This document shows, piece by piece, positions 47,122 to 58,084 of a stretch of DNA of 64,000 nucleotides. Below the pieces are notes generated by a model, which saw only the letters and a list, made by a program, of their open reading frames with translations, was not told where the DNA came from and ran no database searches. Source of the DNA: Candidatus Micrarchaeota archaeon (GTDB lineage: Archaea; Micrarchaeota; Micrarchaeia; Anstonellales; Bilamarchaeaceae). Position 1 is the stretch's first letter; every line of letters begins with the position of its first letter. The position numbers were made by a program, and so were the translations under genes. The stretch spans positions 1 to 64,000 of the forward strand of contig JBBSVN010000004.1 in NCBI GenBank assembly GCA_038046765.1, written 5' to 3'.

Positions 47122-47787
47122 TCAATTACCTAAATTTTTTCTTAAGTTTTTAATCGCTTCTTCAAGTGTTTTTTTGTCGATTTGCCCATCGGCAGTTTCT
47201 TTACCCGAGGATAACGAAACGTAAGTACAAAAACTCCCTAAAAGAGGAGCAATTATTCTTGTAATTTTTCCCTTTTCACCCATACCAATTACAATTAATT
47301 TTCTATCCAAGTCGCTTTGATCAAGTAGCCCAATTAGCCTCGCATTATCCCTCTCGTCATTGACTTTACAAGCTATTTTTGCAATATCTGCTCCGTCTGT
47401 AAAGCACCAATTTATTGTTTGCTTTAATTCTTCTCTTGAAGGCGTTTTTTCATAGTTATGGTATGAAAGAATAACTTTGCATCGCCTCGCTTTAGCAGCT
47501 GCAATAATTTCTTGTTTTATTTTATCTTCAGATTCAATTTCAACATCGACAAAATCTGCTCCTTGTTCTATTGCTTTAAGTAGGATTTCTTTTCTTTGTT
47601 GCTCATTCATCTGATTGTTAGGCCGGCATGTCGCGATCATCTTAGTTTTTCCTTTACTTGAAAGCAGATTAGATAAGTCAGTTAGCGAAAGTTTATTCTG
47701 ATCGAGCCTAAGTTCTGCTAAATCTAAACCTAAAAGTGCTGATTTACATTTTTCTAGTCCAACTTCAGCTATGCTAACACAGATCAT
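47122..47787 (-). CDS. aroD: Type I 3-dehydroquinate dehydratase
   Basis: ELRLD, SYHNY..TP, IAKIA, MGEKGKITR, TADGQ. Confidence 0.92.
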   Translation of the reverse strand: MICVSIAEVGLEKCKSALLGLDLAELRLDQNKLSLTDLSNLLSSKGKTKMIATCRPNNQMNEQQRKEILLKAIEQGADFVDVEIESEDKIKQEIIAAAKARRCKVILSYHNYEKTPSREELKQTINWCFTDGADIAKIACKVNDERDNARLIGLLDQSDLDRKLIVIGMGEKGKITRIIAPLLGSFCTYVSLSSGKETADGQIDKKTLEEAIKNLRKNLGN

Positions 47788-48812
47788 AGAATTTCACCAA
47801 TTTCTTCAATCGGAACTTCTTTCACAACTGATTTTCCAATCCCTTCTAAAAGCGCCATCTTAACATCAGTTCCTTTTTTCTTTTTGTCTTTGCTTATTGC
47901 ACCAATTATTGCATCTTTTTTAATATAATCTAACTGCGTTGGAAGTCCCAATTTTTTCAAAAGATTTTCGATTCTATCCTTATCCTCTTCTTTTAATGTG
48001 CCTTTTTTAACGCAAAGCTTTGCATCATAAACTGACCCTATCGCAACCGCTTCTCCATGAGGTAATTTATGTACTTTTTCTAGTGCATGAGCGATCGTGT
48101 GCCCAAAATTTAATTTAACCCGTTCATTTTGTTCTAATTCATCTTTTTGAACAATGTTTACTTTAACCGAAATTGCATCGCCAATTACTTTTTCAAGTGC
48201 AATACGTTTCATGCAAATAATATCCTCCAAGTTCGACTCTAAGTATGAAAATAAATTAGCATCAGCAATTACTGCGTGTTTTACAATTTCCGCAAATCCG
48301 CATTTTAGGTCTTCTTTTGGAAGCGTTTTTAGAAGTTCTAAATCGCATAAAACGAAATTTGGTTGTCTAATAGTACCAATTAAGTTTTTGTATCCATTTA
48401 AGTTTACCCCATTTTTACCCCCTATACTTGCATCTACTTGAGCTAGAAGTGTTGTTGGAACAAAACCAAATTTTAAACCACGTAAATAGGTACTAGCAAC
48501 AAACCCAGTTATATCGCAAACTACGCCCCCTCCAACTCCAACTATAAAAGTTGAACGCTCAACACCTAATTCTAGAAACTGCTCGTAAATATTCTCAACT
48601 GTCCTAAGGGTTTTTACATTTTCACCAGTTTCGATTTCAATTATTTGAAATCCGAATTCTTCGAGCTTGACGCGATGGTAATTTAACACATTTTTATCAC
48701 TAATAATTACTACTTGTGCACTTGCATCTAGGTAGTCTTTAAGGTTAGATACGTCTTCGCCAATCGCGATTTGCGTACTACCCGTATTTGTAGTTAATTG
48801 TATTTTTTTCAT
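47784..48812 (-). CDS. aroB: 3-dehydroquinate synthase
   Basis: [35 protein letters not shown]. Confidence 0.95.
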
Positions 48813-49630
48813 AAAGAACTCCTCATAAAATTATCAAGCGCCCGAATCTTTTTAGTCATTTTTGTAAAATACGCTGGCGTGAGTGCCTGATCTTTATCGC
48901 AAAGTGCTTCTGGGGGATTTCTATGAACATCTACAATTAATCCATCTGTCCCGCATGCTACTGCCGCTAAACTCATCGGCTCGATTAAAGTTATTTTTCC
49001 AGTAGCATGGCTCGGGTCAACAATGATTGGAAGATGAGTTAATTCTTTAACTGCAGGTACTGCACTTAGATCAAGGGTATTTCTAGTGTAAGTTTCATGA
49101 GACCGTATTCCTCTTTCACATAGAATTACATTTGGGTTTCCTTCGTTTAAAATGTACTCTGCGCAGTATAACCATTCTTCGATTGTTGAATACATTCCTC
49201 GTTTAAGTAATACTGGTTTGTTTGCTTTACCTACTTCCCTAAGTAATGAGAAATTCTGCATGTTTCTTGTTCCAATCTGAAGTACATCTGCGTATTCACA
49301 TACCCAATTTACATCTCTGGTATCTACTACTTCAGTTACGATTGGTAAACCAGTTACATCCCTTGCTTTTTCTAAGATTTTTAAGCCCTTTAATCCTAAA
49401 CCCTGGAAAGCGTATGGCGAAGTTCTTGGTTTAAACGCGCCTCCGCGAAGCATATCCGCTCCTGCTGCTTTTACCGCGATTGCAGTTTCTACAGTTTGTT
49501 CTTCACTTTCAACAGCGCATGGGCCAGCGATTATCGTTAACCCTTCACCTATTTTTACATTGCCAACTTTTACGATTGTTCTGCCGCTTCCGTTTAAACC
49601 GGCAAGTTTTATTTTTTTAATATCAACCAT
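48809..49630 (-). CDS. aroF: DAHP synthase (class I-beta)
   Basis: [31 protein letters not shown]. Confidence 0.95.
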
Positions 49631-51840: not shown

Positions 51841-52626
51841 TTAAATTATATTTTTCACAAACCCTTTGACATCACTTAATGCTTTTTCTTCTTCATTTAA
51901 TTTTCCGTTTTTATCAATGTATTTTGTGTAAATATTAATTATTTTACTTCCAACAATTACGCCATCTGCACCGGCTCGAATAAATTCCAGTGATTGCTCT
52001 TTATTTGAAATACCAAAACCAACAAAAAGATTATTTTTTCTGTTATTTATTTTGGCCAAATTTTGTGCAAATTCTTTTACTGATTTGACAAATTTTAAAC
52101 TTTCAATACTCGTACTAGTTCTTGCTCCTGTAGTTCCGGCAACTGAAACCAAGTATGTAAACAGCTTTTCTTTTTGAAGAATTTTTCTAGAGCGATCTAT
52201 TTGGGTGTTAGAAGAAATCAAATTAACTATCGAAATATTGTATTTTTCCGTCAGATTTTCAAATGTTTTATCTTCTTCAAACGGCAGATCTGGAATAATA
52301 ATTCCTTGAACTCCTACTTTGGCCATCCTCTGCAAGAAATTTTCCCTTCCATACGCATAAACAATGTTATAATAAGTCATGAAAACAAATGGAGTTTTGA
52401 TGTGTTCTTTCCTTAGAGTTTCTACCATCGAAAAGATTTTATCTGTGTTTGCTCCGCTTTTAAGAGCACGTTCGCTTGCTCCTTGAATCGTTTTTCCATC
52501 TGCAATCGGATCTGAAAAAGGAATCCCTAATTCTATTAAATAAGAATAAGGCGCGAGAGTTTTAACTAACTTGTAAGTAAAATCCAAATTCGGATCGCCA
52601 CAACAAACATAAGGAATAAATTTCAT
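51841..52626 (-). CDS. trpA: Tryptophan synthase alpha chain
   Basis: [33 protein letters not shown]. Confidence 0.96.
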
Positions 52627-53807
52627 AGATTTTCAGCCTCGTTTTGCTCTAACTTTGAAATTCGATCAACATCCTTGTCTCCTCTTCCGGAAAGGTTGAC
52701 AATAACTACAGAATCCTTCTGTGCAATCTTTGCAAGTTTTGGTAAGTATGCAATTGCATGAGCACTTTCAAGAGCAGGAATAATTCCCTCATCTTTAGAT
52801 AGAGAATAGAATGCGGCAAGTGCTTCGTTATCATCTATCGAAACATACTTAGCACGTTTACTATCGTGCAAATTTGCATGTTCTGGCCCAATAGCAGGAT
52901 AATCTAAACCAGCCGATATAGAATGTGTTTCTCTTACTTGCCCAAAATTATCTTGTAGTAAATAAGTAAGCGTCCCATGCAGTACTCCTTTCTTACCATC
53001 ACCGCTTATTCTTGCTGCATGTTTTTTAGTACTAAGACCTAACCCTCCAGCTTCAACTCCGATCATTTTAACATTTTTATGTTTTAAAAAAGCGGAAAAT
53101 AATCCTATTGCATTGCTTCCCCCACCAACGCAAGCAAGTAGATAATCGGGTAGCTTCCCTTCTTTTTCAAGAATTTGTTTTTCTGCCTCAACTCCAATAA
53201 CTGATTGGAAATGTTTTACTATACTAGGATACGGGTATGGACCAAGCGCCGAACCTAAAATGTAATGCGTATCTTTGAAATTTGTCGCATAATCCCGAAG
53301 CGCTTCATTTACGGCATCTTTTAATGTTTGTGAGCCAGATTCGACAATCTTAACCTCTGATCCAAGCAATTTCATCCTATAAACATTAAGCGCTTGACGC
53401 TCGGCATCTACTTTGCCCATGTAAACAACGCATTCTAAACCAAATAACGCTGCTGCAGTTGCGCTAGCTACACCATGTTGACCAGCTCCAGTTTCTGCGA
53501 TGATTCTTTTTTTATTCATGTATTTTGCTAAAAGTGCTTGACCAATTGTATTATTTATTTTATGAGCACCAGTATGTAGAAGGTCTTCTCGTTTAAGGTA
53601 AATTCTAAGACCAAATCTTTTACTTAGGTTTTCTGCAAAATAAAGCGGAGTAGGCCGCCCCGCATAATCTTTTAAGTAGTCCTCAAGTTTTTTATTAAAT
53701 TCTTTATCTGCAATTGCTCTTGCAAAACTTTCTTCAAGCTCTTGTAGTACCGGAACTAGTAATTCTGAAACGTATTGTCCGCCAAATTCTCCGAAGTTTT
53801 TTTGCAT
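52623..53807 (-). CDS. trpB: Tryptophan synthase beta chain (TrpB1)
   Basis: [36 protein letters not shown]. Confidence 0.97.
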
Positions 53808-53808
53808 T

Positions 53809-54585
53809 TTACAGAACACCTTTTAATTCGCGTATCTTTGCTTCTTGATTATCAGCTTTCCAAAGCGCAGATCCAACAAGTATCCCATTTGCTCCTGCAA
53901 CCTTGACAAACTTTGCATCCGCATAAGATTTGATTCCGCTTTCGCTTATAACAGGTTTATTTATCGTTCCACTAGCAGCAAGTATATCTTTAGTTCGATT
54001 CAGGTCAACTTTTAATGTTTGTAAATCTCGATTATTTATCCCTAGAACATCTGCCTTTGTTTTAGCTGCTCTTTTCATTTCATTTGCATTATAACACTCG
54101 AGCAAAACATCAAGACCGTTCTCATGAGCTAAATCTATAAAACTGTTAACATCCAGATTTAATCTGTCCATAACTTTCATTATTAAAAGAATACAATCTG
54201 CCCCATAATGTTTTGCAGCTTTAATCTGGACTGGGTCAATTACAAAATCCTTAAATAAAACCGGGAGTCCCGTTTCTTTAGCAATAGCTAAATTGTTCAA
54301 ATTTCCCTTGAATATTTTTGGTTCAACCACAACTGAAATCGCATCTGATCCACATTCCTTAAACCGCTTTGCTGTTTTTTCCACATCGATATTTTCAAAG
54401 GAGTATTCCCCAGCCGGTGAAGCATGTTTTATTTCAGAAATTAATATGAAACCACAATCACGTATTTTCTTTAGTAAGCTAACATGTTCAAAACTATTTT
54501 TAGTAATTTTTGCATCGTTTATATCGTAATAACCCGTCCGTACACTTTCTTTTGCGCATTCGATAAATTTATCTAGTATATCCAT
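53809..54585 (-). CDS. trpC: Indole-3-glycerol phosphate synthase
   Basis: EIKHASP, KDF, GINNRDL, SESGI; no fused TrpF domain. Confidence 0.95.
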
Positions 54586-55550
54586 TAGTATCGCCTCAAC
54601 ATTTCTAATTTTTCAAGTGATTTGCCTGAATCAATTGATTTTTCTGCAAGAGTTACCCCATATCTTATACTACCTGCGATTCCACTAACGTAAATTGCAG
54701 CACCTGCATTAAGAAGAACGATTTCACGAGCTGGTCCTTCTTTGCAATTTAACACTTCTAGAATTATGTTTGCACTTTCTTTTCGATCATTTGCACATAT
54801 TTTATCTAAACTTGAACGCTTAAACCCAAAATCTTCTGGCGAAATGGAATATAAATTAATTTTATAATTAGAGATTTCGCTTATGTTCGTATCCGCACTT
54901 ATACTGATTTCGTCAGTATCACTAGAAACAATCAAGGTTTTTTCTGTACCAATTTCACGAACGGATTTTGATAATTTCTCCAGAAGCGAAGCATCGTAAA
55001 CTCCAATGACCTGTCTTTTAGCATTTGCTGGGTTAGTTAATGGGCCAAGGACATTGAAAATAGTCTTAAAACCAAGCTCGCGTCTAGCTTCTGCAACGTT
55101 TTTCATTGCAGGATGATAAATGCGTGCAAAAAGGAACCCGATTCCGATCTCTTCGATTTGTTTTTCTACAGCTTTAGGTTCCAAATCAATCTTTACTCCA
55201 AGAGCTTCTAAGACATCAGAACTTCCGCATTTACTAGAAGCGGATCTATTACCATGTTTTGCAATGTTTACCCCTGCTCCTGCTGCAACAATTGCACTAG
55301 CTGTTGAAATGTTGAATGTATGATTGCCATCGCCTCCAGTTCCAGCAGTATCAACTAAATTTTTAACTTTTGAAGAAATCTTAACCATTTTTTCTTTCAT
55401 TAAATTTGCAAATGCAGCAATTTCTTCGCAAGTAACATTTTCGATTTTTAATTCTGTAAGAAAGGTTGCAATCTGAGAAGGATTATATCGATTTTCAAGA
55501 ATTTCTCTGAAGATTCTTATTTCTTCTTGTAATTGCAACTTGTCAACCAT
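54585..55550 (-). CDS. trpD: Anthranilate phosphoribosyltransferase
   Basis: GTGGDG..NIST, KHGNR, GPLTNP. Confidence 0.96.
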   Translation of the reverse strand: MVDKLQLQEEIRIFREILENRYNPSQIATFLTELKIENVTCEEIAAFANLMKEKMVKISSKVKNLVDTAGTGGDGNHTFNISTASAIVAAGAGVNIAKHGNRSASSKCGSSDVLEALGVKIDLEPKAVEKQIEEIGIGFLFARIYHPAMKNVAEARRELGFKTIFNVLGPLTNPANAKRQVIGVYDASLLEKLSKSVREIGTEKTLIVSSDTDEISISADTNISEISNYKINLYSISPEDFGFKRSSLDKICANDRKESANIILEVLNCKEGPAREIVLLNAGAAIYVSGIAGSIRYGVTLAEKSIDSGKSLEKLEMLRRY

Positions 55551-56133
55551 CTTTAGCACCATCTAAAAAGTTCTTAAGTATTTGTTTTCCTTCTTCGCTC
55601 ATTATAGATTCTGGATGAAATTGAATTCCAAATATTGGAAATTGTTTATGTCTTAGTGCCATTATTACATTGTCATCTGTACTTCTTGCAATAATTTCTA
55701 AACAACTAGGTAATGAAAATTCATCAGCAATTAATGAGTGATAGCGCATAATACTTAGAGGATTTTTTATATTCTTGAAAAGCCCATTTCCATTGTGGTT
55801 TATCTGACTAGTCTTTCCGTGCATTGGTTTTTGTGCTTTTATTACCCTGCCACCAAATGCGTTAGCTATGCCCTGATGCCCTAAACAAATACCTAAAACG
55901 GGAATAGACTTTCCAAGTTCTAGAATAACTTCCTTGCATTTACCAAAATCACGTTCATTTTCAGGATTGCCTGGCCCTGGTGAAATGACAATTTTAGAAT
56001 AATTCTTTTTCTTGATTTCTTCCAAATTAATTTGATTATTTCTGATTATATCTACCTTGCAACCTAATTCTCCTAGGTATTGATATAGGTTATATACGAA
56101 TGAATCAAAATTATCAATTAACAGAACGTTCAT
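55543..56133 (-). CDS. trpG: Anthranilate synthase glutamine amidotransferase subunit
   Basis: IDNFDSF, SPGPG, GICLGHQ, RYHSL, QFHPES. Confidence 0.96.
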   Translation of the reverse strand: MNVLLIDNFDSFVYNLYQYLGELGCKVDIIRNNQINLEEIKKKNYSKIVISPGPGNPENERDFGKCKEVILELGKSIPVLGICLGHQGIANAFGGRVIKAQKPMHGKTSQINHNGNGLFKNIKNPLSIMRYHSLIADEFSLPSCLEIIARSTDDNVIMALRHKQFPIFGIQFHPESIMSEEGKQILKNFLDGAKDG

Positions 56134-57463
56134 ATTTTTCTTCACCTATGGCTAAGAGTAATGGTTTTGCTTTTTGCTCGGTTTCTTCATACTCTTTTTG
56201 AGGAACGCTATCATAAACTATTCCCGCTCCCGATTGTATATATGCTTTATTTTTGTTTGAAAATAAAGTACGAATTCCTATTGCAAAATCCGCATTGTCA
56301 TTTGAAGAGAAGTACCCAACTGCCCCGGAGTATGGGCCGCGATTAGTTTTTTCTAATTCTTTTATAATTTCAATTGCACGTATTTTTGGAGCACCGGAAA
56401 CAGTTCCAGCAGGAAATATCGCTTCAAAAACATCTCCAGAATTTTTTCCTTCTTTTAGTTTGCCTTTTACAATTGAAGAGATGTGCTGGACATGCGAATA
56501 CTTACTAACTTTCATAAATTCTGGAACCGATACCGAACCGATTGCTGCGACTTTGCCAATGTCATTTCTTGTTAAATCAACAAGCATAAGATGTTCTGCT
56601 CTTTCTTTTGGATCATTAAGAAGTTCTGTTTCAAGTCGTTTATCTTCTTCAACAGTTTCCCCCCGTTTTCTTGTTCCAGCTAAAGTAGCATAGCTCGTAA
56701 TTTCTTGCCCTTCTAATCGAACTAGGTTTTCAGGACTAGAGCCAATAATTTGCCTCTCATCAAATTTCAGATAAAACATGTAGGGTGAGGGATTTATTGC
56801 CCTTAATTTTTTATAAAAAGAAATTAAGTTCCCAGAGTATTTTACTTCATATCGCTTTGAGAGTACAGATTGGAAAATGTCTCCGTTTCTTATGTGATCT
56901 TGTGCAATTTCTACATTTTCACAAAATTGTTCTTTAGTCAAATTACATTTTTTATTATACATTTCTAAAGGAGATGTGGAAAAAGAAGAATCTTTAACAG
57001 AATTTAGAATTTCATTTACTCGGTTTTCTTTTTGATAGACATATCTTAGAGTATTATTTAGATGATCGTAGATAATTACATCTTCATATATTCCGAATTC
57101 AAAATCAGGAAACCTCAGATCATTTTGAGTTTGTGCAGTAAACTTTTCTATATAATTTACATATTCAAAAGAGAAATAACCTACTGCTCCTCCAAAAAAT
57201 CCCTTTTCTTCTAGAGATGTTCTTGGAATGCATGATTTTAGGTCTTTTATCGGACTAATTGTATCTAGTTCTTGCCCATCGACCGTGATTACTCCACGAT
57301 TTAACTTTACTGTTTTTGTTGGAGAAAATCCTAAGAATGAGAATCTTGCCCTTTTTTGGTCTCCTTCGCTACTTTCAAGTAAGAAAGATGCACAAAAATG
57401 TTCATTTAGTATTGAGTATAAATCAGTTGGACTAACGTGCAAATCTAGATCTACTTTATGCAA
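56114..57463 (-). CDS. trpE: Anthranilate synthase component I (start uncertain: TTG 57463, or +1 frameshift from the uORF)
   Basis: LLES, NPSPYM, EHLMLVDL, PAGTVSGAPK, GAGIV. Confidence 0.96.
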   Translation of the reverse strand: MHKVDLDLHVSPTDLYSILNEHFCASFLLESSEGDQKRARFSFLGFSPTKTVKLNRGVITVDGQELDTISPIKDLKSCIPRTSLEEKGFFGGAVGYFSFEYVNYIEKFTAQTQNDLRFPDFEFGIYEDVIIYDHLNNTLRYVYQKENRVNEILNSVKDSSFSTSPLEMYNKKCNLTKEQFCENVEIAQDHIRNGDIFQSVLSKRYEVKYSGNLISFYKKLRAINPSPYMFYLKFDERQIIGSSPENLVRLEGQEITSYATLAGTRKRGETVEEDKRLETELLNDPKERAEHLMLVDLTRNDIGKVAAIGSVSVPEFMKVSKYSHVQHISSIVKGKLKEGKNSGDVFEAIFPAGTVSGAPKIRAIEIIKELEKTNRGPYSGAVGYFSSNDNADFAIGIRTLFSNKNKAYIQSGAGIVYDSVPQKEYEETEQKAKPLLLAIGEEKYERSVN

Positions 57464-57497
57464 GCCAAAGTAAATCCCTTTTTCCTGTATTCTGCAA
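57456..57497 (-). CDS. Trp-codon uORF MQNTGKRDLLWLA overlapping the trpE start
   Basis: GAGGTG SD (57509-57504) 6 nt before TTG 57497; AGG GAT TTA CTT TGG CTT GCA TAA. Confidence 0.6.
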   Translation of the reverse strand: MQNTGKRDLLWLA

Positions 57498-57556
57498 ATC
57501 TAGCACCTCAATAAAATTATTTTGATTAATAATCGAATTGCTGTCTAGCATATATT

Positions 57557-57582
57557 TAAACATTTGTGTACAAAAATATACA
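57557..57582. promoter_or_regulatory. TRP-box-like operator between trpE and the regulator
   Basis: TAAACA-N4-TGTACA-N4-TATACA overlapping the TATA-like TTTAAA. Confidence 0.7.
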
Positions 57583-57583
57583 T

Positions 57584-58084
57584 ATGCTCGATATTCTTGA
57601 AAAATTCTTTGAAAATGCACGAGGAAGGAAACTTGTTGCTATTGAATTTTTACGTTTAGGATTAAAGGTAGATGGAACAGGTAAGATATATGTTGGTGAA
57701 ATAGAAATAGCTCCCACTAAGATTGGTAGAGCACTTGGAGTTGACCGGAGAGTAGTAATAGAAACAGCAAAAGAAATAGCGAATGATGAGAAACTACTAC
57801 AAATATTTTACAAACTTGAATCAAGGTCATTTATTGCGAATGCAGCAAAAGAATTTGGTTTTGATGTGGTTGAACTTAGAGCTAATCCAAAAGCAAAAGG
57901 AATTGTAGCAGAAGTTACTAAGATTTTAGCTGATTGCGGAATTGTTATTCGTCAAATTATAACTGATGATCCAGAATTATTTCCTGATCCTGTTTTGACA
58001 ATCATAATTAATGGAAAACTTAATGCAAAAGTAGTAAAAAAACTGAAGGAATTAAGTTTTATGGAGTCATTGAAGATCAGATAA
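57584..58084 (+). CDS. trpY: ACT-domain amino-acid regulator (COG2150/TrpY-like), divergent from the trp operon
   Basis: IEIAPTKIGRALGVDRRVV, GIVAEV..GIVIRQ..DDPEL; gene context. Confidence 0.8.
   Translation: MLDILEKFFENARGRKLVAIEFLRLGLKVDGTGKIYVGEIEIAPTKIGRALGVDRRVVIETAKEIANDEKLLQIFYKLESRSFIANAAKEFGFDVVELRANPKAKGIVAEVTKILADCGIVIRQIITDDPELFPDPVLTIIINGKLNAKVVKKLKELSFMESLKIR

Follow-up and report, generated by a model that had tools for sequence, protein, structure and literature searches.

In trpL and hisL attenuation, a short leader with cognate codons converts stalling into more biosynthetic enzyme. Little is known about the sensing of amino acid supply at the archaeal ribosome. Here, the start of trpE is described in a stretch of 64,000 nucleotides from Candidatus Micrarchaeota archaeon (contig JBBSVN010000004.1 of assembly GCA_038046765.1, positions 1 to 64,000), hereafter the window. 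A short leader carrying a single Trp codon overlaps the TrpE reading frame one base out of register. The cassette at this overlap is probably a programmed +1 ribosomal frameshift site like those of prfB and Ty1, triggered by scarce Trp-tRNA; judging from sequence comparisons, a probability of about 0.8 is given to this reading.

Several related systems have been described. The prfB gene uses an autoregulatory +1 shift, with a Shine-Dalgarno (SD) sequence, 3 nt and CUU_UGA_C, or UUU_U in some cases (PMC5009743, accessible part). According to the same text, +1 stimulators have a 3-nt spacing to the P codon, and the Ty1/ABP140 site is CUU_AGG_C. As for archaea, fucA1 of Saccharolobus solfataricus undergoes a -1 frameshift at A-AAA-AAT (PMC9855744; PMC8211752). 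In its accessible part, the 2023 review presents fucA1 as the only reported case in archaea (PMC9855744), and the accessible part of the 2021 review mentions neither 'trp' nor 'anthranilate' (PMC8211752). The TrpY regulon of Methanothermobacter thermautotrophicus is controlled by transcriptional repression, and no translational step is named in the part of its description that is accessible (PMC6737238). No published report of a cassette like the present one was found by title or abstract start, most subscription papers and all supplements lying outside this search.

The layout at the window's trpE start consists of the following features.

57510-57504, minus strand: initiation SD sequence TGAGGTG, a 7-base match to the genome's own 16S tail GATCACCTCA
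57497 (TTG) to 57456 (TAA), minus strand: leader open reading frame (ORF) in the 0 frame, 13 codons, MQNTGKRDLLWLA, sole Trp at codon 11
57479-57474, minus strand: internal SD-like hexamer AGGGAT, ending 3 nt before the P-site codon
57473-57471, minus strand: spacer codon TTA
57470-57468, minus strand: candidate P-site slip codon CTT, with TTT at 57469-57467 as the re-pairing target
57467-57465, minus strand: candidate A-site sensor codon TGG (Trp), with GGC at 57466-57464 as the first +1 codon
56114..57469, minus strand: trpE, anthranilate synthase component I, in the +1 frame, with an alternative in-frame TTG at 57463

Every base and frame of the SD-leader-CUU-UGG sequence quoted in the initial annotation was confirmed on the minus strand. 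The +1 frame (TTT GGC TTG CAT AAA) has no stop until TGA at 56114. This ORF is TrpE by PF04715 and PF00425, and it scores 501.7 bits against TIGR01820, slightly below the cut-off of 512. The predicted product of a CTT-to-TTT slip has 460 amino acids. Upstream, the TrpE frame is shut by TAG at 57502-57500. That it lacks an early AUG, as first annotated, holds true, ATG being missing from its first codons. The UUG at 57463 is not its only start, as had been thought: the early common starts are TTG 57463 and TTG 57442. The genome, a 1.5-Mb assembly of about 34% GC, contains a tRNA-Leu(GAG) gene, and the closest named relatives of its TrpE are from Micrarchaeota and Iainarchaeum.

The sequence of the site was compared across four runs, in all cases as contigs and not as raw reads. 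A contig of run X1, which may be the source, spans the entire stretch in one piece. Two contigs from a second study, X4 record 10 (57384-57581) and X5 record 15 (57212-57538), show 0 mismatches and 0 gaps; in run X6, the site is uncovered. In three of the four runs, a contig of another organism has 23 identical cassette bases between diverged flanks. A 1-nt assembly indel had been named as a possible refutation of the frameshift idea. None is present in the second-study contigs bridging the site, and this refutation fails.

Like prfB, the trpE cassette has a short zero-frame ORF with the functional protein in the +1 frame, a P-site CUU_U or UUU_U (CTT here, CTT or TTT in 144 of the 159 cassettes tabulated), an SD-like hexamer 3 nt upstream, a slow A-site codon as the putative sensor and proposed feedback on the scarce factor. 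Unlike prfB, it is archaeal and combines the A-site sense codon UGG with trpE, not UGA with RF2; since this A-site codon is a sense codon, the signal would be an aminoacyl-tRNA, not a release factor. Also unlike prfB, GUU and AUU are used, the hexamer has a GGUGAU register and ordinary initiation spacing, the W codon is reached within just 4-12 leader codons, the codon is exchangeable and tandem cassettes are possible. With Ty1, the cassette shares CUU in the P site, a slow sense codon in the A site and GGC as the first +1 codon. It differs in its A-site UGG (not AGG or AGU), its new P codon UUU (not UUA), its upstream SD-like element and its use of the gene's cognate amino acid, so that the shift would be regulatory and would not fix a set ratio. 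As in trpL and hisL, a short leader carries a cognate codon. Unlike trpL, it has a single UGG instead of tandem Trp codons, the leader overlaps and fuses to trpE, conserved alternative hairpins were not found among 79 cassettes, and the proposed output is a change of frame. Like fucA1, this is a cellular archaeal gene completed by a putative frameshift, unlike fucA1 in the +1 and not the -1 direction. The trpE cassette works like prfB and Ty1 but lacks their defining A-site and gene features.

In total, 466 trpE loci were gathered, of which 461 were anchored on the TrpE LLES motif and 397 were distinct. Sampling was partial: for the class of G441, 110 of 122 matches were fetched, and for the phylum of G815, 50 of 59. 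The layout test, formulated after the motif had been seen, looked within the open TrpE frame for a lead-frame TGG (one base ahead of TrpE) preceded by NTT, with a start codon 3-12 codons upstream of the TGG and no stop between. Among the distinct archaeal loci, drawn from six phylum-level samples, 153 of 263 have the layout; the other off-frame gave 0 of 263. The layout is present in 11 of 54 loci in the window's phylum and in 100 of 106 in clade A of the Methanobacteria class, a class that has cultured members. It was also found in 36 of 51 loci in the phylum of G815, 4 of 5 in that of G443, 1 of 2 in that of G444 and 1 of 5 in that of G817, and in none of the 29 loci of the Methanobacteria-class TrpE clade B or the 11 in the phylum of G445. 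Metagenome loci gave 6 of 75 (control off-frame, 3 of 75), and named genome contigs, which are mostly bacterial, gave 1 of 59 (control off-frame, 0 of 59), the single match being an archaeal record. Of 20 loci fetched post hoc, 17 pass, and one of the three misses is truncated by a contig end. When the A-site codon was swapped for all 64 codons in turn, TGG ranked first, with 153 of 263 against 19 for the next codon. It also did so without the Methanobacteria cassette set (53 of 163 against 13). The CUU-UGG-type site and the frame offset, whose presence in relatives had been proposed as a check, are kept in close as well as very distant orthologs. In a TrpE tree (178 sequences, about 170 residues, FastTree, midpoint root), cassette and ordinary-start genes are intermixed in both large archaeal branches. 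The tree is too weak for ordering gains and losses of the cassette.

Some loci deviate from the common pattern. The clade-A loci L301 and L304 have the cassette plus a second, downstream frame break, which in L301 lies at NN. L012 has CAT-TGG, plus an internal TGA within trpE. In L061, a cassette-like TGT TTT TGG is in frame with the N-terminal stretch of TrpE and the +1 frame is shut immediately; the frame changes later, which may be an error, a broken gene or a variant. A variant ATG TGY CTT TGG, possibly a four-codon leader with a poorer hexamer fit, is found in L434, L436, L437, L439, L444 and L445. In L340, L359, L361 and L364, of the Methanobacteria class and without cassette, a strong SD is followed by ATT or ATC with no ATG, GTG or TTG, which suggests that these trpE genes use non-AUG starts.

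The 159 cassettes tabulated are the 160 passing loci minus L128, which has no SD-like hexamer. Their P-site codon is TTT in 108, CTT in 36, GTT in 12 and ATT in 3, and the synonymous UUC, CUG and GUC never occur. With the TT unselected, NTT still precedes the lead-frame TGG in 153 of the 156 archaeal loci with a start. This NTT-only pattern is the rule expected from re-pairing on UUU. The hexamer columns lying outside the test are G at -8 in 156, G at -6 in 148 and A at -5 in 130 of the 159 cassettes. They match the complement of the 16S tail, and in each of the four groups the duplex energy reaches its minimum at this position. GGC serves as the first +1 codon in 117 of 159 cassettes; among those of Methanobacteria type, the figure is 90 of 102, against 239 of the 1,957 Gly codons of the same genes. 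The Phe-Gly encoded in the +1 frame is missing from ordinary-start TrpE proteins, so the protein has no need of it. As for the leader of 13 amino acids, it is present with its stop as first described, but the stop is not part of the device, its position (1-26 codons past W) being unconserved. Termination-reinitiation at the leader stop was rejected for this reason. The TTG within NTT-TGG was also rejected as a TrpE start: it lies in the third frame, where the ORFs have 2-78 codons and are not TrpE.

The same motif with other codons occurs elsewhere in this genome (G000). Genome scans in which the +1 ORF had to be long and the start no more than 12 codons away gave 4 hits in 1,669 ORFs and 21 in 6,392 motif matches. 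In both scans, trpE alone was convincing; the His and Cys copies were missed and were recovered by an exact-motif listing. The His-leader region (L467, C4:83415-87619) lies about 20 kb past the window on the same contig. It contains a small AbrB-like ORF, a D-Ala-D-Ala dipeptidase-like gene, an unknown ORF of 382 codons, a racemase gene and hisS, which ends the operon. Three consecutive genes there have His leaders: a tandem CTT CAC/CTT CAT, a CTT CAT and a CGG CAC. In the tandem, the first leader reads AGG GAT GTT CTT CAC and its +1 frame enters AGG GAT TTT CTT CAT, and the +1 frame of this second cassette is the small ORF, a weak MazE/AbrB match. The second and third leaders of the region are near-duplicates. 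In this genome, G001 and G013 alike, the small ORF lies behind the tandem pair, whose copies are 16, 25 and 19 nt apart in the three genomes, each 1 mod 3. In G001 the pair leads into hisD, and in G013, via another His leader, to hisS. In all 3 genomes followed up, the operons reached from CUU CAY copies include hisS or hisD. The third His leader of G000 and the additional one of G013 are followed by genes that do not resemble each other. On a CUU-CAY site, re-pairing would take place on UUC, a codon readable by tRNA-Leu(GAG) under the pairing rules.

A Cys-codon cassette (L468, C6:8585-8807) precedes a 70-codon helix-turn-helix (HTH) ORF in this genome, and the Cys cassette precedes the HTH gene in G003 and G004 as well (L471, L473). 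When 10 relatives were searched for the pattern, 13 matches came up, 5 of them His or Cys leaders (G001, G003, G004, G013). The L475 match was examined and looks like chance. Two copies in this genome, C6:107598 and C12:94585, either have no leader start or lie within a long ORF and were discounted as chance occurrences. As far as sequence can tell, the sensing codon is exchangeable, with His and Cys besides Trp, and the cassette is widespread in archaea. The match between codon and pathway, Trp at trpE and His before hisS and hisD, is established, as are the sequence, the frame relations and their conservation.

From these observations, we infer that a shift takes place, that it depends on Trp, that the hexamer plays a role in it and that downstream genes are affected. 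Translation would begin on the leader UUG, directed by the strong SD, and proceed through ten codons. Given ample Trp-tRNA, UGG would be decoded and the stop reached three codons on, with little TrpE made. With scarce Trp-tRNA, the ribosome would pause while UGG occupies the A site and CUU, bound by peptidyl-tRNA-Leu, the P site. The P-site tRNA would then re-pair from CUU to UUU, aided by pairing of AGGGAU with the 16S tail. After the slip, the A site would present GGC, full TrpE would be synthesised, and the coupled, almost Trp-free downstream genes would then be expressed. This would add a translational layer beneath the transcriptional repression by TrpY. The direction suits a biosynthetic operon; occlusion, or reinitiation after the leader stop, would give the opposite sign. 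The frame-offset layout is real and conserved, and it most likely represents an amino-acid-sensing +1 frameshift.

A number of observations weigh against a Trp-dependent shift. In the window's own phylum, 43 of 54 loci fail the layout test, most of them with an ordinary start. Moreover, 102 of the 159 cassettes belong to a single kin group, the Methanobacteria type, and are not independent. The hexamer G lies 8 nt before the P codon, which is also the commonest initiation spacing in the same leaders, where the initiation GTGA stands at 8 nt in 34, at 9 nt in 31 and at 10 nt in 8 (n=101). The internal spacing thus equals the shortest common initiation spacing and is not unusually tight, and strain is not demonstrated. 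The prfB-like hexamer of the initial annotation, 3 nt before CUU, is confirmed in position and in complementarity to the anti-SD; the compression expected from prfB is not demonstrated, and the hexamer fits the archaeal GGUGAU register, not the AGGAGG register of prfB. For the HTH gene after the Cys copy, no link to cysteine was found in the three genomes. The remaining objections are those that speak for a separate TrpE start.

In this rival explanation, TrpE would use its own weak start (GUG at -8, AUU or AUG at -5, or UUG 57463 here), gated by the leader ribosome through a stall at UGG, peptide drop-off with a nearby restart, or occlusion. Indeed, codons usable as such a start in the TrpE frame are present in 142 of 159 cassettes (GTG at -8 in 120, ATN at -5 in 21, both in 1), and the GTG is invariant in the 102 cassettes of Methanobacteria type. 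GTG and AT would also pair with the 16S tail, so their conservation is not decisive. The candidate start codon varies by lineage, NUU-UGG is constant, and the remaining 17 cassettes have neither start. In L431, L440 and L442, a TAG stands in the TrpE frame immediately before TTT GGN, which makes TTT the first possible entry point. In 88 of 159 cassettes, a stop shuts the TrpE frame somewhere after the leader start, and 11 of 159 have no ATG, GTG or TTG ahead of LLES, near-cognate codons remaining. Three P codons are unable to re-pair, namely CAT (L012), CGT (L046) and CGG (the third His leader of this genome), and all three are accompanied by ATT or ATG at -5. In contrast, the first His cassette of G001 is without a start at -5, yet feeds the second cassette in the +1 frame. 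Non-AUG starts seem to be used at trpE in the four cassette-less Methanobacteria loci, and TTG 57463 is viable, giving a TrpE as long as that of ordinary-start relatives. Still, a separate start leaves the invariant UU and the GGC bias unexplained, and simple occlusion by a stalled ribosome would carry the wrong regulatory sign. A separate start as the whole explanation is considered unlikely; internal starts may give a basal level beside a regulated shift. On comparative grounds, a +1 shift at NUU-UGG is preferred to the coupling or occlusion that had been put forward as alternatives in the initial annotation.

A shift could also be real and proceed at a fixed low rate, UGG being merely slow, with TrpE kept scarce and no response to Trp. 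For Ty1, the accessible account gives a set frequency of shifting at a slowly read sense codon (PMC5009743), and TrpY already provides Trp control. The codon, nevertheless, matches the pathway, with Trp first of 64 at trpE and His before hisS and hisD, and a fixed rate appears distinctly improbable. Even less credit is given to transcriptional slippage, with one U lost, or to trpL-type attenuation through RNA structure. The T5 run of the Methanobacteria-type cassettes would suit slippage, but the run is only T3 here and in the CUU, GUU and AUU cassettes. The window leader folds at a z of -1.67, as attenuation might predict; no conserved RNA structure was found across 79 cassettes, however, with mean z values of 0.03 and -0.13 and 3 of 79 below -2. 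Neither process explains missing in-frame starts combined with a cognate codon. Finally, an assembly indel or a decaying pseudogene can be dismissed with near certainty, for although deleting one base would join leader and TrpE and the sequence is derived from a metagenome-assembled genome, this explanation is already contradicted by the two gap-free second-study contigs and the identical frame offset at 159 loci, and the cassette is the best-conserved 15-mer of 1,225 in 12 close trpE genes (a set selected by the cassette, which makes this point partly circular).

Around trpE lie the other genes of the operon and a divergent regulator.

51841..56145, minus strand: trpG, trpD, trpC, trpB and trpA, overlapping or abutting
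57553..57560, minus strand: TATA-box-like TTTAAATA, a putative promoter element of the trp operon
57567-72 and 57577-82: TRP-box-like palindromes TGTACA and TATACA, between trpE and the trpY-family gene
57584..58084, plus strand: trpY-family regulator, divergent from trpE, with ATG 57584 as the probable start of an ORF listed from GTG 57566

Together, trpEGDCBA contain 1 Trp codon in about 1,887, and the genome-wide frequency is 6.84 per 1,000. No trpF ORF was seen in the operon (51841-57469), the range searched, the rest of the genome lying outside it. Genes for DAHP synthase and dehydroquinate synthase are located 2 kb downstream of the operon (47784-49630); the DAHP synthase gene starts with an ordinary SD and ATG, without the cassette. 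The regulator matches the full NCBIfam model NF053754 (TrpY_fam) at an E-value of 7e-44 and 149.7 bits, below the cut-off of 180. The TGTACA at 57567-72 corresponds to the TRP box consensus. As in the TrpY regulon of M. thermautotrophicus, trpY and trpE are divergent with TRP-box-like sites between them; unlike there, the regulator of the window, like that of close relatives, has no Trp at residue 2, and the cassette would add a translational step. At 95 Methanobacteria-class cassette loci (L252-L281, L287-L366), TrpY starts with Met-Trp.

Taken more broadly, and with less confidence than for trpE itself, it is fairly likely that archaea hold an ancient and modular equivalent of attenuation, in which a 15-base cassette turns the shortage of one aminoacyl-tRNA into a +1 frameshift, with relay and gate parts. 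The cassette would consist of an anti-SD-pairing hexamer, a spacer codon, NUU and a sensor codon setting the amino acid (Trp, His or Cys). Tandem copies would then form a two-step gate, and short +1 or +2 ORFs would relay the signal by translational coupling. If this is true, 'hungry codon' frameshifting would have been put to use by natural selection, at a +1 site conserved across several phyla in a gene of core biosynthesis; such a use is left open in the accessible part of an earlier account (PMC5009743). It would also mean that elongating archaeal ribosomes scan for anti-SD pairing and that many archaeal trpE N-termini are wrongly annotated. Furthermore, archaea would possess, in 15 bases, a codon-programmable amino acid sensor.
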